Source: a virus
Lineage: Duplodnaviria > Caudoviricetes
Direction: 5' to 3' (one strand)
Length of the DNA: 57,517 bases
IMG/VR virus record: IMGVR_UViG_3300034375_010865
Span: 1-57,517 of that record
In this document: in pieces, positions 324 to 37,489 of the stretch
Position numbering within the stretch: position 1 is the first letter of the stretch
Layout: each line of letters opens with the position of its first letter
Program-made: the position numbers and the translations under genes
Notes under the pieces: model-generated
What the model was told of the DNA's origin: nothing
Database searches by the model: none
Seen by the model: the letters and a program-made list of their open reading frames with translations, nothing else

Positions 324-693
324 GTTCAATCACCTTTTCACTTTCACCACGCAGCATCTTTTGTAACTCTGCTGTGGATCCTACAAATACATTCTGTGTT
401 AAAGACTTGGTATCATCAGGCTGACCTTTAGCCTGAGTAACGTTGATGTCTTGGTTCTTCTTATGCATCGCCATCAATGCATGAGCGTTTTCTGCCTGTT
501 GTTTAATCATGCCAGTCAGGACTTCGATGGCGCGCGGGTGTTCTGATTCTTCCGCTACTCTCTGTGCCAACTGTAAACCCTCTTCACCAGAAAGAAGCAG
601 GGATCTAAGAGTCGAACGAATCAGATCTAGATCTTCATCATAACTAGAATGAACATTCTCAGGAATGTCTTTCTTTGGCACGATATCAGTCAT
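295..693 (-). CDS. gp16: Terminase small subunit
   Basis: EHPRAIEVL and NVFVGSTAELQKML motifs; position between gp15 and gp17. Confidence 0.85.
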   Translation of the reverse strand: MTDIVPKKDIPENVHSSYDEDLDLIRSTLRSLLLSGEEGLQLAQRVAEESEHPRAIEVLTGMIKQQAENAHALMAMHKKNQDINVTQAKGQPDDTKSLTQNVFVGSTAELQKMLRGESEKVIEHDGSNERNL

Positions 694-1493
694 TAGGTAC
701 TATCACCATTTCCAGGAATTAAATAAGTTGTGGTAAATCCATAATCGCTGTCCAGACTTACATTAAGAGGATCAGGAACAGTTGTAATTCTTTGCATTAG
801 GTTATCAGAATCCGTCAAGCTATTAGTATTACTAAAGCTACGGAAGTCAACAATAGACTTTCTAATAATAGAGTTATCAGAGATTGGACCAAAGAATGCA
901 GTCTTCATTTCAAAGTCTAAAGTATAGATAATAGTTCTTCTACTTTCTAATGCACCTTCATAATCATCGGTATACGAAATACCTATCAGAGAGATAGGAA
1001 TGTCTTCTGTGATATTCGGGTAATCACTAAACTGTTTCATTGTAACAGTATAAGCCGGATTAAAGAATGGCAGAATCTGTTCCACAATTTGAACAGCATC
1101 TTCATTAGTTTTTGCTAAAATATTTAGCTGAAAATTCATAATATATGGAACAGAAGTAAAAAACTTTGTCTTTTTAGTATTATCATCAGTAACAGTTTCA
1201 GTAAAGTTGCTGACTTTAGAAAGCTGTCTAACTGGATCGTAATACATCGAGGAGATCTCAAATGACATACGAGGGAGTTTAATTGCTACAAACCTGGCAT
1301 CAGTTTCCAGGTCTGCGTTTTCTCTAATTCTATCTAAGAATTTTTGTTTAGGAGCATACGCCAATGGAACTTTGATTTGACTAATCACAGCTCCAGCAGC
1401 ATCTTTTCTTAACAAATAGATGTTATTAAATATGGTACCAAATGTAGCCACACATTTTCTAATTTTTTCGTGGTAAAAATGCTGTCCAAACAT
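693..1493 (-). CDS. gp15: Tail sheath stabilizer / tail completion protein
   Basis: FYHEKIRKCVATFGTIFNNI, KVPLAYAPKQKF, LPRMSFE, QIVEQILPFFNP motifs; synteny 13-14-15-16-17. Confidence 0.92.
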   Translation of the reverse strand: MFGQHFYHEKIRKCVATFGTIFNNIYLLRKDAAGAVISQIKVPLAYAPKQKFLDRIRENADLETDARFVAIKLPRMSFEISSMYYDPVRQLSKVSNFTETVTDDNTKKTKFFTSVPYIMNFQLNILAKTNEDAVQIVEQILPFFNPAYTVTMKQFSDYPNITEDIPISLIGISYTDDYEGALESRRTIIYTLDFEMKTAFFGPISDNSIIRKSIVDFRSFSNTNSLTDSDNLMQRITTVPDPLNVSLDSDYGFTTTYLIPGNGDST

Positions 1494-2368
1494 TAGGTAG
1501 GATCTCCAAATGGGTTACCTTCACTGAAGTCTAAGAAATCGTCTCCGGCAGTTTCAAATACATCGTTTTGATTATTAATTTGAATTACATTATCCTCTGA
1601 TGTCGACAAAACGGTATGTGTGTTACTACTAGCATCAGTAATTGTTCCGGCCGTAAATAAGTGGAACTTACCGTCATCTGCTCCAACATGTACAAGCGTT
1701 AGTTTATCAGAACTATCATTCCAATTAGCAATTTCGCCTGTAATAGTGACACCATTTGCCAAACTTTGTGTAACAGAAGTACCTACTTCAAAAGCACCAC
1801 TAGAATAAGCAGAATCCGCTAACGTTAAGATATACTGATAAGCATAACTTCCTTCAATATCATCAATAGCTGCAATGTCTGTATCAAAGTCTTCATCATT
1901 GTATTCGAACAGCTCACATGTTAATCTGAAAACAGGAAGATTAGATAATTGGTAGAAAGGTCTTTCGTCTTCTACTCTAGTAATTTCAAAAATAGAATTC
2001 GACAGAGGAATAAAAATTAAATCACCTTCGTTTGGTCTTACCTGTGAAGATGAATGGCTGGCTGAAACTTCATCCCATCTTTTCTTAGCTACAATGAAGT
2101 TTGCTTGATCTCTTAGCTCTACACCAAATTTAGTGAATAGATCTCCATCACCACCATATCCATCAATGTTTTCCAAATACATTTCAATTTGATATGCATC
2201 TTCAAACTTGGAAACAACATCCTCACTAAACACTGTATCTTCAGCCACAATAGAACGAGGCATGTAGAACACGTCTTGTCCATACATCTTTAAAGATTCA
2301 ATGACTACATTTTCATATAAGTCTTGTTCAGACTTAACTTTTTGGCTGAAGTAAAGGTTAGTGGCCAT
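1493..2368 (-). CDS. gp14: Neck protein
   Basis: EQDLYENVVIESLKMYGQDVFYMPR, LFTKFGVELRD, RPNEGDLIF, PFYQL, DFSEGNPFG. Confidence 0.92.
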   Translation of the reverse strand: MATNLYFSQKVKSEQDLYENVVIESLKMYGQDVFYMPRSIVAEDTVFSEDVVSKFEDAYQIEMYLENIDGYGGDGDLFTKFGVELRDQANFIVAKKRWDEVSASHSSSQVRPNEGDLIFIPLSNSIFEITRVEDERPFYQLSNLPVFRLTCELFEYNDEDFDTDIAAIDDIEGSYAYQYILTLADSAYSSGAFEVGTSVTQSLANGVTITGEIANWNDSSDKLTLVHVGADDGKFHLFTAGTITDASSNTHTVLSTSEDNVIQINNQNDVFETAGDDFLDFSEGNPFGDPT

Positions 2369-2372
2369 TATG

Positions 2373-3128
2373 CTATCCTAAGAAAAAGTCAACAGGAAGC
2401 TCATAAGTCGTTCGCATTTTTTCATCTAGTCTTAACAGCTCTTGAGTTGCATCGTCATAAATTTGTCTACCGTTTAACTGCACACCACCTGGAAGTTGCA
2501 TGCCATCAAACTTAATCAGGTTTGATCCCCATTGCTGTTTAATTAATTGTGTCAAGTATTCTTTCAAGAAAATATCGTTATAAACGTCTGTATGTGTTTC
2601 AGGATCTACGATCTTAAAGGTCTCAAAGACTAAATAGTCGCCTTCTACGATATTCTGTTCAGAAAACTTACCGTGGATATGTACTCTGTTCTGATGCCGA
2701 TTAAAATCAATTTGAGGATACCCAGTCAATTGCATATCAATCAATGAAAGATATTGTTTGACCTGTTCATAATAAGCTAAATTACCGATAAAAGTATTTA
2801 AATCATAGATTTCATTAAGCGACATCTGATACTTAATATCAAACATTCCAGCAGAAGATCCACCGGTGGATCTAATCTGAAATAGTTTTTTGATAAAAGT
2901 AATACTATCGTCTACATCAATATATCCGTTTGTAATATCCGTAGAAGTAACTTGATGCTTTAGAAAAGTCCGGACTACTGCATCAGAATGATATTCCTGA
3001 TACATTTGGAGTGCATCGTCCGTTCTATCCTCAAGCTGATCAATATCAACATTGATTTCAATCACCGGTGCACCAAGTCTTCTTAGACAATGATCTATTA
3101 GTTGATCTCGAGTACTAGGCTTCGCCAT
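2373..3128 (-). CDS. gp13: Neck protein
   Basis: CLRRLGAPVIEINV, KQQWGSNLIKFDGMQLPGGVQLNG. Confidence 0.92.
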   Translation of the reverse strand: MAKPSTRDQLIDHCLRRLGAPVIEINVDIDQLEDRTDDALQMYQEYHSDAVVRTFLKHQVTSTDITNGYIDVDDSITFIKKLFQIRSTGGSSAGMFDIKYQMSLNEIYDLNTFIGNLAYYEQVKQYLSLIDMQLTGYPQIDFNRHQNRVHIHGKFSEQNIVEGDYLVFETFKIVDPETHTDVYNDIFLKEYLTQLIKQQWGSNLIKFDGMQLPGGVQLNGRQIYDDATQELLRLDEKMRTTYELPVDFFLG

Positions 3129-3159
3129 GGTTCTTCCTTACAAACAGATTTATATTATC

Positions 3160-3167
3160 TATTTATT
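3160..3167 (-). promoter_or_regulatory. T4-type late promoter variant (AATAAATA) upstream of gp13
   Basis: tatttatt on + strand about 32 nt upstream of the gp13 start. Confidence 0.55.
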
Positions 3168-3633
3168 AGCCCGAAGAATCCTGTGAGGAATCCTGTGAGG
3201 AATCTTCTGGATAGGTGAATCCCATTTCATCAAACCATTCTCTAGGATAACCTTGATTTTTAAAAGCCAATAGCGCTTCTAGTTCAGTTGGCAGATCTGC
3301 AGAATCCAGGCCCGGGTCAGGCTCCGCGCTATTCCTAGAATTTCTGATAAAGTCTCTATTATTATTTTTCGGTTTCCCAGTAATAAAAGCAATACCATCA
3401 TCTAAAGATGCGGAATCTAACATTGTATCATAATTTACAATAATCCATTTGTCACCAGCGCTGTCGGTTAAGTCTGATTTAAGATTATAAGTTCCACCAT
3501 AGTATGATTTAATGGATTCCTTTGCAGTCATTCCATCTTTCTTTTTTACAGCATACCCAAATTCATTTAGTTTACTGTTATTTTGACTTTCTCTGACATA
3601 CTCTGTCAAAGAATTTGTAATTGTGAGAGACAT
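3166..3633 (-). CDS. Hypothetical protein with DSSQ-repeat C-terminus
   Basis: 155-aa ORF with GGAG RBS; ends PEDSSQDSSQDSSG. Confidence 0.7.
   Translation of the reverse strand: MSLTITNSLTEYVRESQNNSKLNEFGYAVKKKDGMTAKESIKSYYGGTYNLKSDLTDSAGDKWIIVNYDTMLDSASLDDGIAFITGKPKNNNRDFIRNSRNSAEPDPGLDSADLPTELEALLAFKNQGYPREWFDEMGFTYPEDSSQDSSQDSSG
3176..3204. repeat. 12-bp tandem repeat (gaatcctgtgag x2.4) encoding DSSQ units
   Basis: Read directly from sequence. Confidence 0.9.
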
Positions 3634-3656
3634 TTTTGCACTCCTATTTCATATCT

Positions 3657-5495
3657 CTACGAAGACGCTTGGATAATATCACCCGGTCGACTTCTAATAA
3701 TGACCTGTTCAAGATCAGTTCCTGGTCCGTATCCTCTGTAATCGTTTGGATCTGATGGACCAATTGTTGTTCCTCCACTAGAATCCAAATATGGAGAATT
3801 AGTAATAGTAGCTTGTACAGCGGTACCAATAAAGTTGCTTACCACCGTAAAGAACGTTAATCTTCCTGTTCCAACCACAGGATCACTATCTAGTTGACCT
3901 AAAGCCGTTAACTCGTTAGAGTCTCCAGATCTATTTCCTAGGAAGTCAGGTCTAGATGCAGCACTGTCTGCGCTATCATGAATTACATCATATGGATTTT
4001 GAGCGATAAGCAAACTATTTATAGAATTATTGTAAATAGTTTGATAAAGCTGCAATCTATTACCAACTTCTGGAGCTCCTACCTCACCAAACGGGCCGGG
4101 AGGTTGTTGATACAGAATTTGACTAGCATATGAAAGCCCACTATCCGTAAAAGACAGATCTAGAGTAGGTGAGCTATCAAATAAGTTACTAGTAATAGCT
4201 TTATTAGAACCAACAAATAAAAGCCCTTTTGCATCAGAATCTGCGCTATCATGCACAATTTGTCCATAGGGGTTAATATTAAATCCGGCAAGATCGACTG
4301 CAGGTACACTACTAAGATTCATAGTAACAGTTAGATCAGTAGCAGCACCACCATCTGACTCTCCAGCGATTCCTAATTTTCCACCTGCTACACTAATAGA
4401 TTGAACGCTTAGATCTCCTTGTGCAACTGCGATATTGTTCAGGTATGCAAGACCCCCGCCTCCTCCACCGCCTCCGGCAGAAGTAGAATTAGAATAACCT
4501 GCAGCTCCACCTGCTCCGATAGCCATAATGCTAAACGAGTCTACTCCTTCAGGAATAGTCCATACTGTGGCCGAATCACCAACAGATGATTGTGTAGTAG
4601 TAGTAGTAGTACTAGTATTTGGAGGTAAAACTGTGTTTTGATAAGCATTAGAAGATGGTAATTCACCTTGAATTCCGGCTTTATGTGCTAAGTAACCATA
4701 AAGTTTTTCTTCTTCGGTTGAAGATAATGTTCCTTGGATAATAACAATATCTAGATAGCTAACATCTGCTCTTCGTGTATTAAGAACCTGATACCCAAAT
4801 GTAAGTAATTGACCAGCAGGAACTGCAGGAGTTGCATCTCCTCCACTATAACTAGCTCTTCCTCCATCAAATGTTGTTACATGCCCGTTAGTAGTACTGG
4901 CTTTGAAATCGAATAACGCCGTATTGCTGTGTAATGTTCTGTAGTTAACATTTTGACCATCGACATTAGTCCAATTATTATAGTTCCCGTATGAAGCAAA
5001 GTCGTCGTCACCTTTCCAGTATATATAAGCTCCCGGATCAGAGCCACCCGACGCCCATACTCCACTTACAATTGGACCATAAATATCACTACCTGATCTG
5101 CCATTAAGTCTGCCTACTATAAAGACGCGCCAATCATTTGCTTGATGAAGACTTGCAGTACCTGTTTCTTGAAGATAACTTCCTGCAAAAGTTCTTACAT
5201 AATCATTACCAATTGTAAGATAAGTGCCATTAAAAGAAAGATTGTTTTGTCCTGAAACTTTATTAGTCCATTGCGTTTCACTTCCAGTATTTGCTGAACC
5301 GTTAGCACTAATATCACTGCCATCAAACCACCCAACAAGAGTTGCAGATGAAATATCACTGGGTTCCCAGAAATCATAAGAAACTGAGTTGACATTACCT
5401 CCACCTCCACTACCTCCGCCCAGAATAATAACCTGGCTGTAGCCTGCTGCCGCTAAGTCTGCGGAATCTGCTGAATCTGGAAACTTTAAAACCAA
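3657..5495 (-). CDS. Tail accessory/adhesin protein: ConA/LamG-like domain plus N-terminal third of a polyglycine domain
   Basis: TTG start after AAGGA; W.PSD...GWFDGSD...KLYGYLAHK lectin-like pattern; WTIPEGVDSFSIMAIGAGG...GGGLAYLNNIAV. Confidence 0.65.
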   Translation of the reverse strand: MVLKFPDSADSADLAAAGYSQVIILGGGSGGGGNVNSVSYDFWEPSDISSATLVGWFDGSDISANGSANTGSETQWTNKVSGQNNLSFNGTYLTIGNDYVRTFAGSYLQETGTASLHQANDWRVFIVGRLNGRSGSDIYGPIVSGVWASGGSDPGAYIYWKGDDDFASYGNYNNWTNVDGQNVNYRTLHSNTALFDFKASTTNGHVTTFDGGRASYSGGDATPAVPAGQLLTFGYQVLNTRRADVSYLDIVIIQGTLSSTEEEKLYGYLAHKAGIQGELPSSNAYQNTVLPPNTSTTTTTTQSSVGDSATVWTIPEGVDSFSIMAIGAGGAAGYSNSTSAGGGGGGGGLAYLNNIAVAQGDLSVQSISVAGGKLGIAGESDGGAATDLTVTMNLSSVPAVDLAGFNINPYGQIVHDSADSDAKGLLFVGSNKAITSNLFDSSPTLDLSFTDSGLSYASQILYQQPPGPFGEVGAPEVGNRLQLYQTIYNNSINSLLIAQNPYDVIHDSADSAASRPDFLGNRSGDSNELTALGQLDSDPVVGTGRLTFFTVVSNFIGTAVQATITNSPYLDSSGGTTIGPSDPNDYRGYGPGTDLEQVIIRSRPGDIIQASS

Positions 5496-5520
5496 TTACT
5501 TATTCCTTAATTTAAACATT
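5496..5520. repeat. 25-bp direct repeat copy 1 (ttacttattccttaatttaaacatt), contains RBS
   Basis: Identical to 6800-6824; first 14 bp also at 7911-7924. Confidence 0.9.
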
Positions 5521-5892
5521 AATTAATTCCCAGTTAACAATTTCTTCATTCCATCCATATCTTTCATTAGAATCAGATTCTGGCATAGGGACTGGAGGTT
5601 CCCAGCAACAACTGGAATCATTTAGTACCCATGACTCAAAAGATGGTTTGGGTGCAATAAAAGCATCTCTATCAGAATCATAGGTATATCCTATACCTGC
5701 ATAATTTTTTCTAAAAGGAACTCCTCCTAGTAAATGCTTTCCTTCGGCTGTATTATAAGAAGTTCTTTTACAGGTTTGACCAAGCCTATTACCATAGTAA
5801 ACTTCCCAGTCAACTCCATCTGTATTCTCGTCTTTACCAACGATAACTTGAGTTACTATGTTATCTGAATTTAAGAATGCGTAATGTGCCAT
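5512..5892 (-). CDS. Small conserved partner of glycine-rich tail proteins (putative fibre assembly/accessory protein)
   Basis: MAHYAFL..DNIVTQVIVG, KRTSYNT, PFRKNYAGIGYTYD..RDAFI.PKP..SW motifs; ATG at 5892 directly follows the upstream stop. Confidence 0.75.
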   Translation of the reverse strand: MAHYAFLNSDNIVTQVIVGKDENTDGVDWEVYYGNRLGQTCKRTSYNTAEGKHLLGGVPFRKNYAGIGYTYDSDRDAFIAPKPSFESWVLNDSSCCWEPPVPMPESDSNERYGWNEEIVNWELINV

Positions 5893-5893
5893 A

Positions 5894-6799
5894 TTAGCTA
5901 AACGATATCGAATCGGTCCCTGCTGTGAATACTGTAACTTTATCTGTTCCAATAGTACTAGTTATAGATGTTAATCCTGATCCTACAGTTATTGTATATG
6001 TATTGGGGTATCTTAAAATAACTACTCCTGACCCACCAGAACCCGGATATCCATTAGCAGCATCTAGTGCTGTACCACCGCCGCCACCTCCACCAGTATT
6101 TACCATTCCTGGTGTAGCAGGAACAACTTTTCCTCTATCGCCAAAAGCATAACAAGCGCCATCACCACCGCCGCCTCGACCACCTACTCCAACGTCAAGA
6201 TTATAAGTACTGGCTGCACCACCGCCAGCTCTAAATACTGACTTTCCGGTAATAGTAGAAGCAAGACCGTTACCACCATCACCACCTATACCATATCCAG
6301 CTCCTATTTTACCTTCTTCACCGGCTCCACCTCCGCCTCCTGGCCTGGAAGCTAATGAGCTCCATTGATTTGCACCATCTCCACCATCAAATCCCTGGCC
6401 AGCACGACCCGCTCCTCCTGCATGGGTGACAGCTTGGGCTGAACCCCCTCCAGATCCGCTGCCTCCAGCGATACCTGCAGTTTGGCCGTTAGTTCCTCTA
6501 CCGCCACCAGTAGAAATAATTGTATGAAACTTGCTATAACTACCATTACTGCCAGCGGATCCTACAGTAGTTGCCCTAGCTCCTCCTCCGCCAACTGTAA
6601 CTGTATAATTTGTACCTGTTGATAAAGTAAAAGCCGATTCTATGGAACTATTTCGTCCAGAATAGGTGTCTCCAGAATAAGAATTTCTATATCCTCCTGC
6701 ACCTGCTCCGGATCCCCATTCTGAATAGGCGGCGCTCGGAGGTCTACCTCCTCCGCCGCCACCAGCAATGACCAAATAAGAAACTGTTAAACTAGACAT
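5894..6799 (-). CDS. Glycine-rich (polyglycine, gp38-adhesin-like) protein
   Basis: VSYLVIAGGGGGG...YTVTVGGGG...NTGGGGGG...GGSGVVILRYP complete domain. Confidence 0.75.
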   Translation of the reverse strand: MSSLTVSYLVIAGGGGGGRPPSAAYSEWGSGAGAGGYRNSYSGDTYSGRNSSIESAFTLSTGTNYTVTVGGGGARATTVGSAGSNGSYSKFHTIISTGGGRGTNGQTAGIAGGSGSGGGSAQAVTHAGGAGRAGQGFDGGDGANQWSSLASRPGGGGGAGEEGKIGAGYGIGGDGGNGLASTITGKSVFRAGGGAASTYNLDVGVGGRGGGGDGACYAFGDRGKVVPATPGMVNTGGGGGGGTALDAANGYPGSGGSGVVILRYPNTYTITVGSGLTSITSTIGTDKVTVFTAGTDSISFS

Positions 6800-7921: not shown

Positions 7922-8212
7922 TTATACCGAGTCTACTAAAACCCATTCTTGTACTGCTGAATCAAAATTATATTCTACGCCGTCTAAATCTCTTTGAATA
8001 GTAAAAATCATTCCGGATCTAATATGATTGATTTGTTCTGGCCATGCACCACTATCAATCATTGGAGTATTATCAATAAACTGTTGAAGACTAATACTGT
8101 CATTATAATACTTATCATATTCATCTACTACTAGTGTTGCATATTGAGCAATATTAGTATTAGGATTATCTTTTTGCTCTACTGCATAAGGATAGTATAT
8201 ACTTTTAACCAT
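7922..8212 (-). CDS. Hypothetical small tail accessory protein
   Basis: 96-aa ORF in operon with AGGA RBS; C-terminal Y.FD..VQEW motif resembles the end of 5512-5892. Confidence 0.6.
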   Translation of the reverse strand: MVKSIYYPYAVEQKDNPNTNIAQYATLVVDEYDKYYNDSISLQQFIDNTPMIDSGAWPEQINHIRSGMIFTIQRDLDGVEYNFDSAVQEWVLVDSV

Positions 8213-24591: not shown

Positions 24592-27500
24592 TTAAGTACC
24601 TAATGCAATCGCTCTGATATCTCTGAGACGTGGAACCTTAGAAGAGTTACCAGATCTAAAGACCACCTTAATCTTAAAGGTATCGAACGGAGTCAGAGTT
24701 CCACTTTGACCACCGATCAAATACTCGTATTCTCTGAAGACCGCAGTATCATCATCAGAAGGATTATTACTTTCTTCTTCAATTAACACATAATTCAGCT
24801 CATTAATATCTGTATCATCACCTGCAGATACCAACTTATAGTACACATCAATGAAAGTATTTGATGGTCTGTTAGCACCAATCAGAATCTTCAGTCCTAC
24901 AGCCGGTTCTTCTAAGTTAATATTCTTAGAGACATACTTGGCAATAGACGTACCATCAACAGGATCTGTCTCTGCAACATAGTTGATAGGAACATTTGTC
25001 AGTGTAGTATCTACTCCAGCAGAGTCGACTTGGTTATCAATGATATTATTGAATAAGCCAAGTTCAGCAGTCTGCATATCAATCACTGGAGAAAGATATT
25101 TGTTAGTAGTCGTAAAAGTTGCTGTAATGTTAGCAGATCTAGTCGATGCTCCTAACTCAGCGATTTCAATCTTTCTACCGGCAATTACACCTGGAGCTGT
25201 CAGAATAATAGGTTCATTACCATTGAACGGATGATTCGTAGCAGACGAGCTATAAGCTACGTTACTAGCATCACCTGCAGTACTTAACGAAACACCATTT
25301 CTAAAGTTTCCTGTCATTGATAGACTGACTTCAGGACGGATGAATGTTTCAATATTAGGAATAACTCTATCAAACATAATATTTTGAGTAACAGTGATAT
25401 CATTGCTACCAGCTACCGTAGAAGCCGTAGCAGAAGAGTCTGCAGTAATAGTAAATCCATAACCATCTACATTTACCACAGTTCTATCACCCAGAATTGA
25501 GCTACCAGCAATACCACCAATATCATCGGAAGAATCAATACCTCCGATACTGATAACGTCACCTTTTACCAATCCGTGATTAGGATTTTTAAAGAACACT
25601 GTTGAAGATCCAGAGTCTACAAAAATTGGATTGTTTTCTAAGAGATCATCTTCCAGATCATCGTTTCTCAGATATGCAGTACCAGTCACACTAGTATCAA
25701 AGGATGCAGCAAAAAGCTGGAACATCATGTCACGTTCTTGATCCGGAGTCCAAGTTCTAGAGTTCTGCGACATGAACAAGGACCCGAGAACTGGTTGACG
25801 ACGGATACGTCTTTCAGTCGTGCCGATCTCAAAGTCTCCTGCCTTGGCTACATAAGCATTATAGTCATCAGACGAAGACAGCAGAACAAAGGCATATTCA
25901 GTTTCTGCCTGCAAGTATACAGGTTCCTCAAACACGAAACTTGTAGGAGCGGCAACAATATCCGACAAACTTTCCAGATTCGATGGAATTGTAACATCAT
26001 CTCTGTTTACAGATGTTTCTGCAATAAAGTCTTCAGATGGAACACCAGCAATCATTGGACGAATCTGCATTCTAACTGGAATATCTGTAGCAGGACGTGT
26101 TCTGAAGAATACGTTAATCTTACTAACAAATCCACCCGTCTCCATAGGAAGCTGGAACGATTGTGCCAATGGATCACGTCTTCTAGATCTTCTACGACGT
26201 CTTCTTGGACGTGGACGTGGAATGAATCTAGTGCTAATCTCTCTGGTAACAACTCTACCGTTACCGCTATAACTACTGCTAGCATGTGACAGGGCAGCAT
26301 CCTCATCATCAACGCTAATATCAATCAGCTTAAACTCTCTGTCACCGGTACGGAAGGTATTTGCCGGGATAAAGAACGAGCCAGTAATCTCACCCTTATC
26401 ATCTGTTGTTAGAGTAGTTGCACTATTGGGGTGAGCAGTAGAATTTCTATTGACTGCACCTTGAAGTAGTCTACGAGAATCTCTTCTTACAGCAGTTTCA
26501 CTTCTAACAAAATTTGTAACTGAAGTACCATCAAAGAAAGCAAAATGTCTACTGTTTGGTCTCAGACCTCTAGCCTTGAAGAAGACCAGTCTAGGACGAA
26601 TGAAATCTGAAAGTTCAGTTCTTTCTCTTGTAGTAGTAATGGTTGTGCCATTCTGAGCAGTTCTTCTTGTAGTAGTTACGTTCCACTGCAAGTTGGTATT
26701 TGGCAGAGGTCTGATTCTTCTTTGATTTCTTCTGTTGCTAAGAACCAGTCTTCTCATAGCAGCAGCAACTCTTCTGCGAAGTCTTGGTGTTACTCTACGG
26801 CCCCGAGTTAAACGAGCCCGCAAAGCAGCTGCACCGAAGACGTTTCGTTGTTGAACCTGTGCAGTTATAATTCTACCCGCACGTACCTCATTGACTTCAG
26901 TAAAGAAGTCTACCGAAGGAGTAAGTTCGATACTACCTACATGAGTAATAATGTTGTATGGGTTGACGTTTTCTGTCTCAGACGCTACCAATTGAGTAAT
27001 TACTGCAGAATCTTGGTAGTTCAACATTACCAGTTCACCCGCAACTTTAATATTAGTAGATGCAGCAGAATCGGCAAAAAGGTTTACATTTTTAGTTGTA
27101 AATAATGGTTGAATTAAATCTTGTTCTTCATCAAATGATGCAAAGAATTCACCTGTCTCGGTATCGATAAAATCAATATTTTTAAAGTTGTCTGCAAAGA
27201 AACCATTTTTAAATCTATTGTTTCCATTTGCATCCAGAACTTCAATGTTTGCAGTTTGTGTTTCTAACAAGCTGAGTGTCGTCGTTTCTTCGATGCGGTC
27301 GATTCTATCTTCCAGATTGGCAATATCGGCCATAGTATAGCGTCTATTACCTACAGGTTCAAAAGTAACATCGTCTTCATTATCAGTATATGGTTCTAAA
27401 TCGATGGCATAGATCTGCATTGCATCGTTTGGAACTGTAGGTGGAACTGGATTAAACGCCGAGGTACCCTCAATATACTTAATCTCATTATCAACGTTAA

Positions 27501-29733: not shown

Positions 29734-31080
29734 TTAAAGTTGGAATATTACTTTGACATCTTCAGTTTGAGCAGCGTCTCTAGTTACCGGACTCTTGTTT
29801 TCAATATAGATGATCTCACCGCTAAATGGATTTGCTTCACCATCAGAATCCAATGCATTTAATGTACCAAAGACTCCAGCATTATCAGAGTCGGTTACTA
29901 CCTCGCCGGAAGTAAACGGCTTGAATCCAGTACTAGCATTTTGATGGAAGAAAATAGTATTAGTAGAAGCATCAAACTTGTCAACAAATGCTGCCGCGTT
30001 AGAAATATTACCTCTAATCAAATCATCGGCACCAAACGTTCCTGTTACGCTATTAAGTCCAAACTTTCTAAGTACTAATCCAGTACCAGCAACAAAGTCA
30101 GAGTCGTTGTGTTTCTTAGGATTCTTAAGAATTCCAATCTGCCTAAAGTCTTGGCTGACTAAGAAGTCTCCTCCCTCTTCACCTGCAGGCTGAGAGTTCA
30201 TCATTAAGAATCTGGCGTTAATGTCATCTCTAGGGTCAGCACCGATGCCATTCATGGAGACAACCGGTTCAATCGTAGCAGCGCCGTTATTGGAATCCGT
30301 AATGCTTACAGATGCATAATCATATCCAGCTCCAAGAGCAAGATTACCGTCTGTAGAATCCGCAATAATTGCTTTTACGATACTACCGCCAGATACAGTC
30401 AATGTTACTGCACCGCCAGATCCATTTCCAACTACTGTACCAGTAACACTAGACGGATAATCAGTACCACCACTAACAATTCTGTATCCTACGATAGATC
30501 CTTTTACAGCAGCATTCTGGACGTTAAGTTGTTCTGTTTCAATTAAGTTTCCAGCTGTGGTGATTTTTGTTACAGGAAGAAAATTTGCAGAAAGAAACTT
30601 ATTGGTGTTTATGGCTGTCAGAGTAAACAGATACTTCCAAACATATCCATCAGAAGTTCTGGAAGGAATATTTCCTGTTCCAACAGTATCAGGATTGATA
30701 GTAGAGATTACTGGGTTACCAGAAGTGTCTTTACCTTGTTCCAGACAGATATAAACTCTTTGGGATTCCGTATAGACGTAATATGCTCCGAGAGAAGTCA
30801 AAGTTACAGCATCACTGAAAGCGTTGTAAATCGTACCAGAGGACCAGTTATATCTGGTTGCTACAAAGCTACCATCAGAAATTTTCTTAATTGACTGCAT
30901 ACTCGAGCGGAATTTTCTTTCCTCTTCCAGAGTATTAACAGTTGTAGGTACGGTTTCAGTAGTGTTCCACTGATCAGACTTACCAATCGCTAAGTAGTAA
31001 TTGCCTCCTGAGTCATCTAGATTATCAATAATCCTATCAATGACGGTCTTTTTAAATGAGTTTGTAGCAATGGCTGTCAT
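29734..31080 (-). CDS. gp8: Baseplate wedge subunit
   Basis: RYNWSSGTIY, VYICL, DGYVWKYLFT, DFRQIGILKNP, SGEIIYIEN..P.TR...QTEDVKVI. Confidence 0.88.
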   Translation of the reverse strand: MTAIATNSFKKTVIDRIIDNLDDSGGNYYLAIGKSDQWNTTETVPTTVNTLEEERKFRSSMQSIKKISDGSFVATRYNWSSGTIYNAFSDAVTLTSLGAYYVYTESQRVYICLEQGKDTSGNPVISTINPDTVGTGNIPSRTSDGYVWKYLFTLTAINTNKFLSANFLPVTKITTAGNLIETEQLNVQNAAVKGSIVGYRIVSGGTDYPSSVTGTVVGNGSGGAVTLTVSGGSIVKAIIADSTDGNLALGAGYDYASVSITDSNNGAATIEPVVSMNGIGADPRDDINARFLMMNSQPAGEEGGDFLVSQDFRQIGILKNPKKHNDSDFVAGTGLVLRKFGLNSVTGTFGADDLIRGNISNAAAFVDKFDASTNTIFFHQNASTGFKPFTSGEVVTDSDNAGVFGTLNALDSDGEANPFSGEIIYIENKSPVTRDAAQTEDVKVIFQL

Positions 31081-31092: not shown

Positions 31093-31533
31093 TTAAGTTA
31101 AAAACGTGATTCTTGAGTCTGAGTCTCTGTCCAGATGCCACTCGGTACCGTCCCATACCAGGTCGAAAGACATCTTGTTATTTATAGTCAATCCAGTAGA
31201 TCCGATAGGAAAAGCTAACCCACCGGTACCTGCTGTAATAGAGAGACTAACATCAGAATCAGACTTATTGATAATTCTTTTGATCTCACCATTGGAAGAT
31301 CCATTGGCAAGAGTAAAGCTACTATTGATAGTAGGAGTACTTGCTAAGTTAAAGATATAAAGAGTACTGGAATCCATGGAGGTAGAACTATCAGTAATAG
31401 ACTGAATACTACCTCCTGGCATGAAGGTATACAGCTCAGTGAAGTTGGCGTTAATCTTTACACCAGCATCTCTTAGGGTATCACCGGTACCGTCGTTAGC
31501 TGTCGTACCTGTAGAAATAATTTGTCGAACCAT
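31093..31533 (-). CDS. gp9/gp10-like N-terminal domain protein
   Basis: RQIISTGTTANDGTGDTLRDAGVKINANFTELY. Confidence 0.75.
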   Translation of the reverse strand: MVRQIISTGTTANDGTGDTLRDAGVKINANFTELYTFMPGGSIQSITDSSTSMDSSTLYIFNLASTPTINSSFTLANGSSNGEIKRIINKSDSDVSLSITAGTGGLAFPIGSTGLTINNKMSFDLVWDGTEWHLDRDSDSRITFLT

Positions 31534-31564
31534 ATTTCCTACTCTATATTGAATTCTTTGATTT

Positions 31565-31571: not shown

Positions 31572-31657
31572 CATACTTATCATGTCGTATTAACTTTAAG
31601 GCGGATTATATTAAACCACAAAGACATCTCTATAACCGTCTTTTGTTAAACAATAAA

Positions 31658-32722
31658 TTAGCTCCGCCGGGCAGCCAATATAGTAATTGCAGCCAGACCG
31701 CCATTCCCAGTGTCCGGGGTAGTTGAGGTACTTGCACCATCACCTCGGCCATCTATATAATTTGGCTGGTCTGTACCACCCGGCTCAGCAAAAGCCGCAG
31801 CGCCATGCGACGCACTGCCTTTACCCCTCTCACCATTTTCTTGAAATGTATCAGTAGCATCGCCATGTGTATATCCTTGGCCACCCAATGAATAGTTATT
31901 GGTTTGTCTTTTTCCGCCGATGTAACCGCCACCGCCACCGCCGGTCATGGTGCTGCCAACTCCCTGGACAATACCTCCCCAACCACCTTGTCCTCGGCCA
32001 GCGCCATTTCCGCCATATAAACTAGCATCATTGTCGCCGCCTCCAGGAGCACGCTTTGTAGTGTGGCCTGAAGAGCTATTATTGTACCAACTGCTACCTC
32101 CAGCGCCTCCAGCGGCAATCAATAATGAAGTTGCTTGAGATTTAGTAAGTGTATCAAATAGACCGGTCATTCCGCCACCGCCCCCAGCCCAGCCGAGAGT
32201 GCTTGCTGCAAAACTAGTATTCTGACCACCATTGCCAAATGCCGTGCCATGTGTACCATTTACATAAGCAGAACCGTTGTACCCGGCAGCACCGCCGCCT
32301 CCTCCATAGCCGCCTCCGCCATAACTGTTCGAATAGTATGACACGGTACCGCCATTACCAAGCATAAGTGTATATTGACCTGGTTGTAATAAAAAAGTTG
32401 CATGTCTATATTCACCAGCGCCGCCGCCTTGGTTTTCACCTGAGTTGAGGGAATTACCGTTGCCGCCAGCGCCGCCCCACAGTTGTACTTTTACTTGAAC
32501 TGGTTTTTCAGTAACAGTTATAATATTATCTGCATTATTATGGCCTTGGCCTAGCACTGGCGAGAGCTGAGAAGTATAAGTTGGATTTGGCGATTCATAA
32601 CCTTCCCGAGTATAAATTTGATTAGTGCTATAAACTACACCATCAATATCAATAGTGCCAAAATTGGCACCACCGCCGATAACAGCTGGCATAGCTAAAG
32701 CAAAAGTACCAGGAAAAGCCAT
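31658..32722 (-). CDS. Glycine-rich adhesin-like protein
   Basis: VKVQLWGGAGG, LLIAAGGAGG, GGGGGGYIGG, GLAAIT. Confidence 0.7.
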   Translation of the reverse strand: MAFPGTFALAMPAVIGGGANFGTIDIDGVVYSTNQIYTREGYESPNPTYTSQLSPVLGQGHNNADNIITVTEKPVQVKVQLWGGAGGNGNSLNSGENQGGGAGEYRHATFLLQPGQYTLMLGNGGTVSYYSNSYGGGGYGGGGGAAGYNGSAYVNGTHGTAFGNGGQNTSFAASTLGWAGGGGGMTGLFDTLTKSQATSLLIAAGGAGGSSWYNNSSSGHTTKRAPGGGDNDASLYGGNGAGRGQGGWGGIVQGVGSTMTGGGGGGYIGGKRQTNNYSLGGQGYTHGDATDTFQENGERGKGSASHGAAAFAEPGGTDQPNYIDGRGDGASTSTTPDTGNGGLAAITILAARRS

Positions 32723-33357
32723 TAGACCGAACCTACCAAACCTGCACTAAGAATAAGGACGTTGGCAGAATCAAATACCATACCAGAAATAACCGTATGC
32801 TTATTTGGTCCGCCCCATGTAATGGTAGCCGAGTCACTATAGTGTACAGTAATACCAGTACCACCAGCAAAAGTGATAGAACGATCTGAGTCGTCATCAC
32901 CATTGAATGCCATGATGGTAAAGCCCATCCCATCAAGAGCCCCGCCGGATGTACCGTCGAGTGTCAATGTATTAGTTGCATCAACAGGAGATGAATCTCG
33001 ATTCCATTTAGCCACATTGCCGGTTGAAAGATCATAGGTTACTGCATTGCTGTTTGCAAGAGAAACCAGGCCGGCTTTAGCAATACCAGAAGCAGTAAAA
33101 TCATTCGAAACAGTCAAATCATTCGAAACAGTCAAATCATTGGCAATCGTAATGTCATTAGCAAGTTTAGCACCAGTTACAGCATCATCCGCGATTTTAT
33201 TCGTCGTAACAGCCAGATTTTGAATAGCTGCGGTATCAACAGCGTTATCTGACAAGATATCAGAATCTACCGAGTTATCAACTAGAGCAGCTGCATCAAC
33301 TGTGCCTGGCTCTAATCTAACTCTTGTTTTAATTAAATTTGTATTAAACCTTGCCAT
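32722..33357 (-). CDS. Short fibre protein
   Basis: AVTTNKIADDAVTGAKLA and NDLTVS repeats; C-terminal adaptor-like domain. Confidence 0.65.
   Translation of the reverse strand: MARFNTNLIKTRVRLEPGTVDAAALVDNSVDSDILSDNAVDTAAIQNLAVTTNKIADDAVTGAKLANDITIANDLTVSNDLTVSNDFTASGIAKAGLVSLANSNAVTYDLSTGNVAKWNRDSSPVDATNTLTLDGTSGGALDGMGFTIMAFNGDDDSDRSITFAGGTGITVHYSDSATITWGGPNKHTVISGMVFDSANVLILSAGLVGSV
33098..33141. repeat. 18-bp tandem repeat (aaatcattcgaaacagtc x2.4) encoding NDLTVS
   Basis: Read directly from sequence. Confidence 0.9.
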
Positions 33358-33387
33358 TTATATTTCCTCTATTGGCGCAATTTTTAA

Positions 33388-33395
33388 TATTTATA
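33388..33395 (-). promoter_or_regulatory. T4-type late promoter TATAAATA
   Basis: tatttata upstream of 33357. Confidence 0.75.
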
Positions 33396-33404
33396 AGCAA
33401 CTTA

Positions 33405-34841: not shown

Positions 34842-34855
34842 GATAAACTCCTATC

Positions 34856-36370
34856 TTATGTAAATGCCTGAATGCCACCTACAATAATTTTCGCACTATC
34901 ATTTTCTACAGGGTCAATCACAAATCCATTCCATACGACAAATCTGTTTGCTGTACCTACCGGCTCAACTTCAATACCGCCCGGCCAATAATCCCTTAAC
35001 ACATAATTACCATCACTCGCTAAAGTAACATCTGTTACTACACCATCTTCTCTTAATACAATGGTAAACGGTGTCATATTTCTAACTTTATCAGCCTTAG
35101 CCAAGGTTAATGTAGAACCATCTGCAAGATTCCAAATGTGATTATTAGACTTGGATATATCAAAAGTTGTACCTGTAGTAACATTACCTGCAGCAACACC
35201 ACTGTCCATAGAGATGTTATTATTAAACGTACTAGTACCACTTACTGTTAGATCTGTCCCAACCGATAAAGTTGTTCCTGCACTAACTGATGTTCCTGCT
35301 GTAAGACTAGTATCAGATACAAGTGCATTAGCTTGAATAAGCCCACCGGAAGTGATATCACGAGTTACTCCAATACTATCTAATGACACAGTTGTCATAG
35401 TTGTTGTTAAAGTTACATCTAAAGTGCCACTAATATCTGCATTGGTGCCTACATTTAAATCACCTCCAATATTAAGATTTTCAGCAATTCCTGTTCCGCC
35501 ATCTACTATCAATGCACCAGTTGCAGTATTTGTTGAAGTAGTTGTATCATTAATGTTAACAACTCCAGTAAAATCGCCGTTGCCGCTTACTGAAGAGTTT
35601 CCTGCTATATTTAAATTTCCGCTGCCTGTAATATTTCCACTAAAGTTTCCACCAACAGTAGTAATACCTGTAGACTTGAATGTCGCTGCAGTTACGCCAC
35701 CGGTAGCAATTTTTAATGCGTCATCCGAATCTGTAAATAATCCCGTATTTTCGTCAGTTTCAACTTTTGGATCAGGAGCTGTAGCAGAAGTTCCTTTAAT
35801 CAAAGTTTCTAATTCACTAGCAAATACTTGTGCTTCGGAAATGTTCAAATCGATCGTATTAGAATCTAAAGCATAATACAATAATTGATATGTGTTTATA
35901 TTCTGCGTTGTAACTGGAAAGGTTCCAGCAGAATCTGGGATATAGTAATATCTATTTGGAGACAAGTTATTAAAATTTTGGCCATCAGACTCTAGTTCAA
36001 AAACTCCGGTTTGAGCCAAATCAAATGTAAGCGGTTTAGTAGATACAATAATGTGTGATGCTACATTATCTGAATCTTCGAATGCACCTGTCCAGAGGCC
36101 GAGTGTACTATTATAAAATACAGCTTTACCTACACTTAATGATGCATTTAAAAAAGTGCCGGCTCTTCCTGGAGAGTCTAAAAGCGATTTATCGACCGAA
36201 AATCTAGAAGACTTGTTTGCATTAATATTAACAAGATTTAAATTTGAATCTAAATTTTCAAAATTCGTGTTAATTTTAAGTGCAGCGGCCCTTAGCGTAT
36301 CACCTGTATTATCATTTGGCAAAGTGCCACGATTCAATATATTATCTGAGTCTAAGTAAATTAAAGGCAT
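34856..36370 (-). CDS. Baseplate-anchored fibre with gp9/gp10-like N-terminus
   Basis: PNDNTGDTLRAAALKINTNFENL; TGALIVDGGTGIAENLNIGG fibre repeat. Confidence 0.7.
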   Translation of the reverse strand: MPLIYLDSDNILNRGTLPNDNTGDTLRAAALKINTNFENLDSNLNLVNINANKSSRFSVDKSLLDSPGRAGTFLNASLSVGKAVFYNSTLGLWTGAFEDSDNVASHIIVSTKPLTFDLAQTGVFELESDGQNFNNLSPNRYYYIPDSAGTFPVTTQNINTYQLLYYALDSNTIDLNISEAQVFASELETLIKGTSATAPDPKVETDENTGLFTDSDDALKIATGGVTAATFKSTGITTVGGNFSGNITGSGNLNIAGNSSVSGNGDFTGVVNINDTTTSTNTATGALIVDGGTGIAENLNIGGDLNVGTNADISGTLDVTLTTTMTTVSLDSIGVTRDITSGGLIQANALVSDTSLTAGTSVSAGTTLSVGTDLTVSGTSTFNNNISMDSGVAAGNVTTGTTFDISKSNNHIWNLADGSTLTLAKADKVRNMTPFTIVLREDGVVTDVTLASDGNYVLRDYWPGGIEVEPVGTANRFVVWNGFVIDPVENDSAKIIVGGIQAFT

Positions 36371-36402
36371 GTTCTAGAAACCTTTTGTGAGCAGTTTACA
36401 TT

Positions 36403-36410
36403 TATTTATA
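36403..36410 (-). promoter_or_regulatory. T4-type late promoter TATAAATA
   Basis: tatttata upstream of 36370. Confidence 0.75.
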
Positions 36411-36415
36411 ATGTC

Positions 36416-37489
36416 TTACGGTGTATCAGCACCGGAATCTGGATAATAATCAAATTCAGACTCATCCATTGTTTCAATAATATTGGAGAAGTCAATAGTC
36501 TTAAAGACGTCAAGTCTATCAAGTGTAAAGATAGTACCAGCAGAGTCATCATCCAGTGTATGTGTACCATCAGAGTTACTGAGGTTAAACTTAATACTAG
36601 TTACATCATCAGTAGAGCTGAATAGACGAGAATTTGTTTCCAACGGACCAACTAAAGTACTGTATTGATTATATGGAGAGTCGTCTAGAATGGATTCACT
36701 AGTATTGTAGTAGCTGTATTCTCCAGGTGCATACATACGTGTACTGATTGCAGAATCAACAATTGTAACATTAGCTTTAGACGAAACTGTTCCAATTTCA
36801 ACTGCCAAAATATTGGCCAGAATAATAGGAGCAGAGTCATCAATGGAAAGTGGCATTGAGGCGGCCAGAGATGTATTAGTAGTCAGGCCTTCAATTACCA
36901 ATTCAGAAAAGAGTTCCCACCCTGCAGGGTGAATATATGTTTTATAAAGATTTTTCCAAGTTGCAATTGGAATAGCAGATGTGACGAGAACAGAATAAAT
37001 CTGATAGTAATAGGAATCTTGTAAAAACTTAACAGACTCAGCACCAATCTGAGACTCACCTACAATAAAAGTCTGGTCTTTAGGATAAGACAGCTGTACG
37101 TTTTCGCCATATAAAAACTTAAGAAAGCCTTCAGCTGAAACTTGAGTTCCTCGAGTTTTATAGAAAAATGGTAGGAGCTTAATAAAAAATCTAGATGTGG
37201 ATTCTGGAAAAGCATCGGGTCCAATACCAGATGACAATTCATCAAAGATAAACTCCAAGAATCTTTCTGGAGTAAGTTCTCTGTCTTTTAAATATGCAAT
37301 GTCTTCCAACTCACCGATAGGATTTCTACCGTCAGAATCTGTATAGTCTTGAAGCCAGTCGTAGTATTTTTTAAGAAGTGTTACAAACGTAGGGTATTGC
37401 TCTTGGAAATGACTAGGTAATACCGTATCGACATCCGGCTGATTAAAAATCAGATCATTTCGGTTAAGATCAACTAAAGTATGAGGCAT
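36416..37489 (-). CDS. gp7: Compact baseplate wedge initiator (gp7-like)
   Basis: YPTFVTLLKKYYDWL, FYKTRGT, QDSYYYQIYS, HPAGW; follows gp6. Confidence 0.65.
   Translation of the reverse strand: MPHTLVDLNRNDLIFNQPDVDTVLPSHFQEQYPTFVTLLKKYYDWLQDYTDSDGRNPIGELEDIAYLKDRELTPERFLEFIFDELSSGIGPDAFPESTSRFFIKLLPFFYKTRGTQVSAEGFLKFLYGENVQLSYPKDQTFIVGESQIGAESVKFLQDSYYYQIYSVLVTSAIPIATWKNLYKTYIHPAGWELFSELVIEGLTTNTSLAASMPLSIDDSAPIILANILAVEIGTVSSKANVTIVDSAISTRMYAPGEYSYYNTSESILDDSPYNQYSTLVGPLETNSRLFSSTDDVTSIKFNLSNSDGTHTLDDDSAGTIFTLDRLDVFKTIDFSNIIETMDESEFDYYPDSGADTP

Follow-up and report, generated by a model that had tools for sequence, protein, structure and literature searches.

Why do the tail proteins of one marine phage lineage carry the same three residues, Asp-Ser followed by Ala, Asp or Ser, so many times over? 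The question is raised by the IMG/VR record IMGVR_UViG_3300034375_010865, a fragment of a T4-like myovirus whose entire 57,517 nt we analysed (hereafter, the window). From right to left, its minus strand encodes gp32, gp26, gp48, gp53, gp5 (split into several pieces), gp25 and gp6; genes for the baseplate periphery and the fibres occupy the next 34 kb downstream of gp6, and then come gp13, gp14, gp15 and the small terminase. An original prediction, made from these letters, held that Asp-Ser (DS) saturates the outer virion proteins as a candidate virion-wide site for modification of Ser. In literature searches that covered main texts and few subscription journals, we found neither this Asp-Ser motif nor glycosylated fibres described for marine T4-like phages.

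Asp-Ser is enriched at the protein level

For each protein, the expectation was computed from that protein's own Asp and Ser content. The dipeptide test used 300 within-protein shuffles of the 27 open reading frames (ORFs) at 693-37489 (11,979 aa). DS occurred 178 times against 89.0 expected (written 178/89.0 from here on; z 9.6) and ranked first of the 400 dipeptides, while DT (58/95.1, z -4.0) was the most depleted of them. The reverse dipeptide, SD, was near expectation (103/89.2), which rules out an effect of patches rich in Asp and Ser. The 24 ORFs outside 693-37489 contained 15 DS against 31.5 expected. All of the per-protein counts in the original prediction (57, 16, 13, 10, 8, 6, 5 and 4) were reproduced exactly, and the comparison of DS with SD, DT and ES that it had proposed as a check sets DS apart from the others (for ES, ESA was 0/2.9).

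Because the 2022-aa tail fibre contains tandem repeats and several fibre proteins share modules, we masked the later copies of every internal repeat or paralogous segment detectable by BLAST. About half of the fibre's DS sites fall within repeats, and after masking the fibre retained 29/13.5. Over the whole set DS stood at 116/58.6 (z 8.0), when the maximum among 2000 shuffles was 84, and DT at 39/62.2; composition once repeats are collapsed, which the original prediction had named as the explanation that would undo it, does not account for the excess. A signal in the DNA itself might also be suspected, as the codon pair GAY-TCN contains the site GANTC. GAYTCN occurred 124 times in the Asp-Ser frame and only 10 and 12 times in the remaining phases, 12 different codon pairs encode the 178 DS sites, and both families of Ser codons are enriched after Asp (TCN 124/50.4; AGY 44/22.7, or 1.9-fold). 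The signal is therefore one of protein, as had been claimed from the variety of codons, and neither a GANTC site nor a codon-pair effect explains it. The amino-acid composition of fibre sets from related genomes is similar to that of control fibre sets. An artefact of composition, internal repeats, paralogues, local Asp/Ser-rich patches or DNA-level signal accordingly has a vanishingly small chance of being the explanation, and we rejected it.

The motif is a tripeptide with a defined context

Tripeptides were counted in the 22 ORFs that are not Gly-rich (10,051 aa). DSA (58/6.2, 9.4-fold), DSD (41/6.7, 6.1-fold) and DSS (27/7.2, 3.7-fold) stood out, followed by DSG (13/6.6). Tripeptides that differ at the first or second position showed no excess: DTA (5/6.6), DTD (3/7.2), ESA (0/2.9), NSA (4/5.1) and ASD (6/6.2) were not enriched, and Asp-x-Asp with x other than Ser was at or below expectation (DAD 2/5.7, 0.4-fold; DGD 2/6.1, 0.3-fold; DND 1/5.1, 0.2-fold). 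Asp, Ser and a small third residue are thus each required. At the 178 DS sites the next residue was Ala in 59, Asp in 42, Ser in 27, Gly in 13, Asn in 12 and Ile in 7, in agreement with the original statement that it is mostly A, D or S.

The preceding position is typically V, L, F or I. Across 156 non-redundant DSA sites from the window and five relatives, hydrophobic residues were enriched at -1 (1.6-fold), +4 (1.5-fold), +7 (1.5-fold) and +8 (1.3-fold) and dropped at +3, +6 and +10; Pro was reduced to 0.2-0.4-fold at +3 and +4. This pattern suggests the start of a helix with a hydrophobic staple. At DSD sites Gly was 1.7-fold enriched at +3, and the context looks more like a loop or turn. 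The sites are single and dispersed, with a median spacing of 26-80 aa; the exception is a threefold DSSQ tandem at the C-terminus of a 155-aa protein.

The motif marks the distal tail

We then asked which proteins carry the motif. It marks the distal tail, that is, the baseplate periphery and the fibres, plus small proteins at the position of T4 wac. The distal-tail ORFs of the window hold 122 DS[ADS] sites, and all of the window's genes given with coordinates in this section lie on the minus strand. The richest carrier is the 2022-aa tail fibre (13703..19771), with DS 57/23.3, DS[ADS] 46/7.2 (p 4e-22) and DT only 9/25.1, the low DT count being as originally reported. Tandem Repeats Finder (TRF) places 249-nt (x2.3) and 54-nt repeats at 16503..17072, about residues 850-1160, with units that include TSGIFDSARIP and VDSAIDD. 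Also enriched is an 813-aa fibre or tailspike-like protein, p813 (20102..22543; DS 16/6.3, DS[ADS] 9/1.7), which has PHROG tail-fibre hits and a weak pectate-lyase-like hit. Three fibre-module proteins each contain five DS[ADS] against 0.7-0.9 expected: p340 (340 aa, 22642..23664; DS 8/3.1), paralogous by BLAST to parts of the 2022-aa fibre; p211 (211 aa, 32722..33357; DS 5/2.2, DS[ADS] 5/0.7); and p504 (504 aa, 34856..36370; DS 10/3.6), also paralogous to the large fibre.

Other carriers belong to the baseplate. A non-repetitive 1710-aa DUF4815/VrlC-like protein (24592..29724) has DS[ADS] 11/2.3, and a 448-aa gp8-like wedge protein (29734..31080), recognised by its match to gp8 in the PDB (E 3.9e-4), has 3/0.7. 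A 146-aa protein with a gp9/gp10 N-terminal domain (31093..31533; PF07880) shows DS 5/1.7 and DS[ADS] 4/0.5. The block opens, directly downstream of gp6, with a 357-aa baseplate wedge protein, p357 (36416..37489; PF23786; DS 7/3.3, DS[ADS] 4/0.8). At the wac position, before gp13, lies a 612-aa protein (3657..5495; DS 13/5.2, DT 0/3.5, DS[ADS] 10/1.4) whose orthologues have DS 12-13/5.4, and adjoining gp13 is the 155-aa protein with the DSSQ tandem (3166..3633; TRF 3176-3204; DS 6/2.0, DS[ADS] 6/0.5; orthologues DS 5/1.4, 7/1.8 and 11/3.0). Smaller contributions come from a 96-aa protein between Gly-rich genes (7922..8212; DS 4/0.7), a second 146-aa protein (5512..5952; phrog_7759; DS 3/0.6, DS[ADS] 2/0.1) and an 899-aa weak carrier (10344..13043; DS 6/4.9, DS[ADS] 5/1.2).

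The boundary of enrichment is gp6 itself (37489..39363; DS 2/3.9, DS[ADS] 0/0.9), and the same switch occurs in five relatives, G001-G005. Within the window no enrichment was found in gp6, gp13, a DUF6065-like protein, any hub or inner-baseplate protein, or five Gly-rich proteins. The gp5 parts, gp53, gp48, gp26, an aldolase, the DUF6065-like protein, gp32, gp6 and the tape measure have 0-2 DS each. These low counts are exactly those of the original prediction for the inner hub and non-virion proteins; depletion of DS in hub proteins is seen in some outgroup phages too. The C-terminal part of gp5 contains no DS, and each of 11 orthologues contains none or one, where 1.9-3.5 would be expected. 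The five Gly-rich proteins are paralogues interleaved with the fibre genes (5894-6799, 6837-7907, 8224-9543, 31658-32722 and 33405-34841); they are 20-29% Gly, enriched in GG (291/196) and depleted in GP, and have 0-3 DS each, with no excess.

The relatives extend this picture to virion proteins beyond the window. In G001, a 96-kb relative, enrichment begins at the first gene past gp6 (8/2.0, 8/2.7, 8/3.4) and continues into the fibres (35/8.7, 25/7.7). Beyond that block only gp15 (4/1.5) was flagged as enriched, and none of the ~110 ORFs upstream of gp6 was; gp15 is weakly enriched in some of the relatives. In G003, where PHROG matches identify the head and tail genes, portal (2/2.2), protease (0/0.6), scaffold (1/2.3), major head protein (4/2.4), sheath (6/3.8), tube (0/0.9) and large terminase (1/2.2) were all near expectation. 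With portal, head, sheath and tube at expectation, and the Gly-rich proteins without excess, the description of the motif as virion-wide was wrong.

The motif is a trait of one marine clade

Judged by gp6, the nearest cultured phages are C48C1 (36% identity), the SAR11/OM43 myophages HTVC008M, Mosig and Melnitz (31-34%) and cyanomyophages (~30%), so that the hosts of the nearest cultured relatives are SAR11, OM43 and cyanobacteria. We found no phage paper on C48C1 in a literature search, and a look for tRNA genes as a hint of the host found none. Homologues of p813 come from marine collections, Tara included. A gp6 search of IMG/VR supplied uncultured relatives (the best 80 of 143 matches, 47-100% identity), and we examined 31 of these 80 loci, picked for long flanks. 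Downstream of gp6, DS was above expectation in 31 of 31 loci, by factors of 1.25-2.4; upstream, it was below expectation in all 19 loci having at least 1000 aa there. In the post-gp6 blocks of G001-G005, DSA reached 39/3.2, 15/2.8, 38/5.4, 35/5.3 and 88/5.8 (5-15-fold) and DSD 24/3.3, 24/3.0, 41/6.2, 26/5.6 and 26/5.3 (4-8-fold).

Both tripeptides were at about 1-fold in the remaining ORFs of G001-G005 and in T4, HTVC008M, S-SSM7, Cr30, Melnitz and Mosig. DS itself was flat in the control phages: T4 gp7-12 plus wac 19/17.3 and gp34-37 18/14.0, HTVC008M 44/43.1, Melnitz 33/32.1, S-SSM7 25/34.1, Cr30 15/22.9 and Mosig 28/29.2. We therefore rejected the idea that the motif is a general property of T4-like fibres. 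C48C1 is intermediate, solely through one 1568-aa protein (DS 31/17.7), and the signal is graded by distance: G008 (gp6 44% identical) has DS[ADS] 48/10.4, and the complete genome G006 (39%) has 22/9.7, with no dipeptide excess. The motif is thus a trait of one uncultured marine T4-like clade.

Two fibres of G005, of 1506 and 1440 aa (L114:10428-14948 and L114:15079-19401), consist mostly of a ~19-21-aa repeat containing DTHDSAAV. They hold 32 and 18 DTH units, with DS 52/14.5 and an unusual excess of DT (42/22.9), and the repeats give weak matches to the all-alpha MgtE_N repeat.

Sites were acquired and then conserved

The difference from phages outside the clade is clearest in orthologous proteins without repeats. 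In the VrlC-like protein, clade members have 11, 10, 7, 8 and 10 DS[ADS] (2.2-2.6 expected), as against 1, 2, 3 and 2 in C48C1, HTVC008M, Melnitz and Mosig. The gp8-like protein has 3, 6, 4, 3, 4 and 3 in the clade, 0, 1, 1 and 0 in the outgroups and 1 in T4. In the alignments, the DS[D/A/S] columns of the clade are occupied by ordinary polar loop residues in the outgroups. In 24 distant homologues of p813, other residues stand at the sites, and observed/expected DS is at most ~1. The comparison with orthologues from phages that lack the motif, another check proposed at the outset, gives the same answer for all three proteins.

Within the clade the sites are kept. Among 28 orthologues of p357, the Asp and Ser of DS sites are conserved at 0.70 and 0.67, compared with 0.42 and 0.40 for other Asp and Ser; among 26 gp8-like orthologues the values are 0.72 and 0.74, compared with 0.60 and 0.40. 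Single sites in these two families are retained in 28 of 28, 25 of 26 and 24 of 26 orthologues, and the gp8-like sites generally in 18-25 of 26. In 25 orthologues of p813, DSA at residue 685 is found in 22 and DSF at residue 577 in all 25; in 16 of the 24 distant homologues site 577 reads DAY or DAF. The higher conservation of DS-site residues is, as the alignments appear to indicate, the product of purifying selection.

In the window, the 18-aa repeat of the large fibre reads TSGIFDSARIP; its counterpart in a Streptomyces phage, the Kradal tailspike, has TSGTFDAARIP. The original prediction had supposed that familiar fibre motifs were rewritten to contain DS: the difference between DA and DS, here and at site 577 of p813, bears this out in substance, though the exact version with which it made the comparison was not found. 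The stretch shared with the Kradal tailspike (L118), at 16637-17089 on the minus strand, is 65% identical over the 18-aa repeat between a marine T4-like phage and actinophages, and seems to belong to a fibre module that has spread very widely. Taken across families, the motif is, on the evidence of these alignments, probably a convergent gain in at least 10 unrelated proteins of one virion compartment, kept thereafter.

A putative acceptor site for modification of Ser

What, then, could the motif be for? We propose that hydrophobic-Asp-Ser-(Ala/Asp/Ser) is a short linear motif acquired and conserved by one marine T4-like lineage, in proteins that have only their place in the virion in common: the baseplate periphery, the tail fibres and the wac/collar position. 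Three fixed positions, convergent gain, conservation in the clade and absence from orthologues of the same fold point to a site read by a factor acting in trans, and would be hard to obtain from constraints of folding alone. The motif would then be a sequon, at which the Ser hydroxyl accepts a modification, and our best guess would be cytoplasmic O-glycosylation by the phage's own glycan machinery. Candidate genes for that machinery begin directly past the right edge of the window in near-identical relatives: three for family 25 glycosyltransferases (GT25), one for a GT42-like transferase, one for a sugar nucleotidyltransferase and several for methyltransferases. That the motif is a Ser-modification sequon, with glycosylation the most plausible chemistry, is a tentative reading, possible rather than probable. 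More doubtful is the fuller claim of a self-encoded, cytoplasmic, sequon-directed system in which D-S-(A/D/S) marks more than 100 Ser residues of the baseplate periphery and fibres and spares the head. Its machinery would comprise the GT25 enzymes, the GT42-like, nonulosonate-type transferase, a UDP-galactopyranose mutase, methyl- and carbamoyltransferases and a radical-SAM (rSAM)-SPASM protein, and the sugar coat would cover the apparatus that contacts the host but not the head. We infer three things here: the Ser residues carry some modification, it consists of sugar, and the enzymes of the block attach it.

Candidate writer enzymes lie beyond the window

We found no glycosyltransferase or kinase within the 57.5-kb window. 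Its right end cuts a DUF932 gene (56853..57491, minus strand; PF06067), and it is here that a glycan block starts in relatives. Two loci, L217 and L237, are 94% identical in nucleotides to window positions 55937-57517; in both, a GT42-like gene lies directly upstream of DUF932, and further upstream come a 217-aa protein, three GT25, two methyltransferases, a sugar nucleotidyltransferase and a RuBisCO-like protein (in L237 at 1332-2387, adjoining the sugar genes). A glycan block at this edge in near-identical relatives supplies concrete candidates for the writer ~1-4 kb past it. The original prediction had placed the probable writer, a phage enzyme, outside the window; glycan genes that may supply it stand directly past the window's edge in L217 and L237.

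Similar blocks occur in other relatives. That of G001 encodes a sulfotransferase, a UDP-glucose/GDP-mannose dehydrogenase, sugar nucleotidyl- and cytidylyltransferases, GT8, two GT25 and GT2, as well as methyltransferases, a B12-binding rSAM protein, rSAM-SPASM and 2-oxoglutarate (2OG)/JmjC oxygenases; G002 has a similar set; and G008 has a carbamoyltransferase, rSAM-SPASM, a GT8-like protein, UDP-galactopyranose mutase and two GT25. GT8 was rejected as a sufficient writer because Mosig has a copy 72% identical to that of G002, yet no motif.

Two gene families track the motif-bearing genomes, rSAM-SPASM and a 204-208-aa protein, both present in G001, G002, G008 and G006. Among 50,697 phage records, the only close homologue of rSAM-SPASM is in C48C1, and a single further record matches weakly and in part; it fits no specific NCBIfam or characterised family above cut-off. 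The sole close homologue of the 204-208-aa family in a cultured phage is likewise in C48C1. This family has 175 relatives, with the consensus GNGPS..GCN..NSGHxAxxY..HxWGxDS. A 58-sequence profile matched the Campylobacter GT42 sialyltransferases CstII in the PDB at E 3.7e-4 to 3.2e-3 (seven distinct sequences), Cst-I at 0.015 and the lipooligosaccharide sialyltransferase 9c08 at 0.048; the alignment spans residues 1-158 of CstII and takes in the GNGPS, CN and SG..A..G.D core. The family thus resembles CstII and Cst-I over the nucleotide-sugar binding core, with borderline E-values; it differs in having only ~205 aa and, in clade members, GNGD/H in place of GNGPS. In G001 a CMP-sugar cytidylyltransferase (CTP_transf_3) lies 1.6 kb from the GT42-like gene; CTP_transf_3, as a possible part of a CMP-nonulosonate donor pathway, was not seen in the scanned stretches of G002, G008 and L237.

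Profiling G001, G002 and G008 against the complete genome G006 left only a second rSAM-SPASM gene, which was set aside, there being no room for it at the syntenic place in the window. The B12-binding rSAM protein (~550 aa) is conserved in G002 (L103:797-2494) and G001 (44353-45993); except for one weak partial match it has no homologue among the 50,697 phage records, and it is uninformative as a test of the writer.

The sole enzyme-like gene inside the fibre cluster of the window encodes the DUF6065-like protein (9547-10314, minus strand; 255 aa, 0 DS), which scored 25.3 bits, just below the Pfam cut-off. Homologues of 32-35% identity lie beside tail genes in ~49 haloarchaeal myovirus records (HF2, HRTV, HSTV, HCTV), with weaker ones in 13 cyanophage records, and L090 has two tandem paralogues inside its fibre cluster. 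The AlphaFold model is poor (predicted local distance difference test score 45.4, from an 8-sequence alignment), Atlas matches were to DUF6065 clusters only, and a literature search found no mention of DUF6065. As a writer it was rejected: halovirus HF2 has a homologue and tail proteins without the motif. In G004 a gene for a 438-aa PhyH/2OG-Fe(II) oxygenase (L109:12768-14084) lies within the fibre cluster.

Relation to known glycosylation systems

How does the motif compare with acceptor sites already described? The general protein O-glycosylation sequon of Bacteroidota is D-(S/T)-(A/I/L/V/M/T), in which Asp is near-obligatory, Glu is not accepted, and Ala and Ser are allowed at +1 (PMC12871550, PMC8550257). 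The phage motif is alike in having three residues, Asp before the acceptor, exclusion of Glu (DSA 58/6.2 against ESA 0/2.9 and NSA 4/5.1) and enrichment in a class of targets. Unlike the Bacteroidota system, which uses Ser and Thr with a slight preference for Ser, the phage proteins avoid Thr (DT 58/95.1); and whereas in Bacteroidota the +1 residue is L, I, V, T, A or S in ~90% of sites and rarely Asp, here Asp is the second commonest and L, I and V are not favoured. The Bacteroidota machinery draws on a lipid-linked glycan and works in the periplasm, its substrates being non-cytoplasmic proteins; phage tail proteins fold and assemble in the cytoplasm. The likeness is real in logic. The treatment of Thr, the +1 residue and probably the compartment set the phage motif apart from the Bacteroidota sequon.

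The staphylococcal enzymes SdgA and SdgB work in the cytoplasm, adding O-GlcNAc to Ser flanked by Asp in long tandem SD tracts. The D-S-D and D-S-A sites of the window share the flanking Asp, but are dispersed, the DSSQ repeat of the 155-aa protein being the sole tandem. SdgA and SdgB are GT4 (GT-B) enzymes, and PF00534 was found neither in the window nor in five relatives whose records are 34-54% complete. Glycosyltransferases of mycobacteriophages reportedly decorate virion proteins, namely capsid and tail tube (attributed to Freeman et al. 2023). The present lineage is similar in encoding glycosyltransferases, here in relatives and not in the window (three GT25 and the GT42-like gene in L237; GT8, GT25 and GT2 in G001, G002 and G008), and dissimilar in that head protein and tube are not enriched, the targets marked by the motif being the distal tail. 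We know of no defined tripeptide sequon in mycobacteriophage virion glycosylation.

Alternative readings

A number of observations weigh against a glycosylation sequon. The usual acceptor of GT42 and GT25 enzymes is lipooligosaccharide. Assignment of the 204-208-aa family to GT42 is borderline: a 4-sequence profile gave no GT42 match, and Pfam hit 1 of 56 members (E 0.008), a faint lead to the Maf flagellin O-glycosyltransferases (Maf/MptE) to which an Atlas search added another. GT4 (PF00534), MptE/Maf-like, GT9 and Pkinase domains were found in none of five relatives (records 34-54% complete). Capsid, tube and Gly-rich proteins lack the motif. G006 and C48C1 have rSAM-SPASM and GT42-like genes and only a weak or one-protein signal, the gp8 and VrlC orthologues of C48C1 being without the motif. 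The co-occurrence of both gene families with the motif is confounded by relatedness, and marine myophages without it commonly have blocks of sugar genes, as the GT8 of Mosig illustrates. Phage S-SCSM2R has 13 glycosyltransferases, which its authors read as modifying the host surface or DNA (PMC12801897). Finally, a structural role would account just as well for the high positional conservation, for the hydrophobic residues at -1, +4, +7 and +8 and for the placement of the motif within regular repeats.

On such a reading, D-S-A/D/S would be the helix N-cap (Asp as the cap, plus a hydrophobic staple) or Asx-turn that the lineage favours, would involve no modification, and would have spread as fibre modules were duplicated and drifted. 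The context is that of an N-cap in several respects: Asp as the cap, a small polar residue next, hydrophobic residues at N' (-1, 1.6-fold) and N4 (+4, 1.5-fold) and also at +7 and +8, Pro avoided at +3/+4, and Gly at +3 of DSD. DS positions are conserved, many fibre proteins share modules, and the DTHDSAAV units embed the motif in longer repeats weakly like all-alpha MgtE_N. Capping, however, normally tolerates a Ser, Thr or Asn cap and many residues at N1, whereas here Asp, Ser and the third position are each nearly fixed, Thr is avoided, and the idiom is specific to a lineage and absent from the same folds in outgroups (gp8, VrlC-like and p813 homologues). In the homologous Kradal repeat Ala replaces Ser, which means that this fold can do without the hydroxyl, and at least 10 non-homologous proteins are enriched, a result that survives masking of paralogues. 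PDB sequence searches found no relatives of the 2022-aa fibre, of p813 or of the p813 profile. We consider a purely structural idiom somewhat unlikely. Asp carboxylates and Ser hydroxyls might instead form Ca2+ or Mg2+ sites that stiffen exposed parts of the tail in sea water or bridge to host polysaccharide. DSD (41/6.7), with DSDG (7) and DSDN (6), resembles the start of DxDxDG-type loops, Gly is enriched at +3 and the habitat is marine; but DxDxDG loops are acidic at positions 1, 3 and 5 with any residue at 2, and here D-x-D is enriched solely for x = S. The commonest form, DSA (58 sites), has a single carboxylate, and the marine phages HTVC008M, Mosig, Melnitz and S-SSM7 lack the motif, which makes cation binding improbable.

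A different reader in trans has a similarly poor prospect. This could be a chaperone of fibre or baseplate assembly, or an rSAM-SPASM, 2OG-Fe(II)/JmjC or DUF6065-like enzyme. The motif is confined to proteins whose trimerisation has to be assisted or which have to be assembled late, rSAM-SPASM occurs in G001, G002, G008 and G006, and the fibre clusters of G004 (2OG oxygenase) and of the window and L090 (DUF6065-like) hold such genes. Yet the gp8-like and VrlC-like proteins are not fibres, C48C1 lacks the motif in both, HF2 has a DUF6065 homologue without it, rSAM-SPASM fits no characterised family, and the co-occurrences are again confounded by relatedness.

Other features of the locus

The pieces of gp5 lie on the minus strand as an OB-fold N-terminal part (44025-44573), a small lysozyme-like ORF (43726-44025), an amidase-containing ORF (42449-43729) and the C-terminal part (40693-42447). 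Between gp48 and the tube/gp26 genes, a gene on the plus strand (48050-48496) encodes a TnsA-like endonuclease N-terminal domain; it has the same place in G002-G006 and G008, at 54-83% identity. An auxiliary gene for a DeoC/LacD-family aldolase (54995-55804, minus strand) is 89% identical in G002, and a comparison with bacterial genomes gave no useful relative. G002 also has a cassette of heme oxygenase and ferredoxin-dependent bilin reductase (L103:16778-17999), a pair that resembles the PcyX-type cassettes of uncultured marine phages (PMC11480375).

Implications

If the motif is a sequon, the decorated proteins and residues of a phage lineage that abounds in ocean metagenomes could be mapped by reading sequence, and virion glycosylation of Gram-negative-type marine phages would become testable. 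It would also give a function to marine myophage sugar blocks that are now read as modifying the host surface or DNA (PMC12801897). A self-encoded system, if true, would be the first sequon-defined protein glycosylation in phages and the second sequon-driven O-glycosylation in the bacterial world, after that of Bacteroidota. If the motif is structural, it would be a rare documented case of a three-residue idiom fixed convergently in a dozen unrelated proteins of one virion compartment, useful for annotating fibres and predicting their structures. In the one case, two known kinds of biology, phage virion glycosylation and sequon-driven bacterial O-glycosylation, would be extended; in the other, the lineage would have an unusual idiom of its own.

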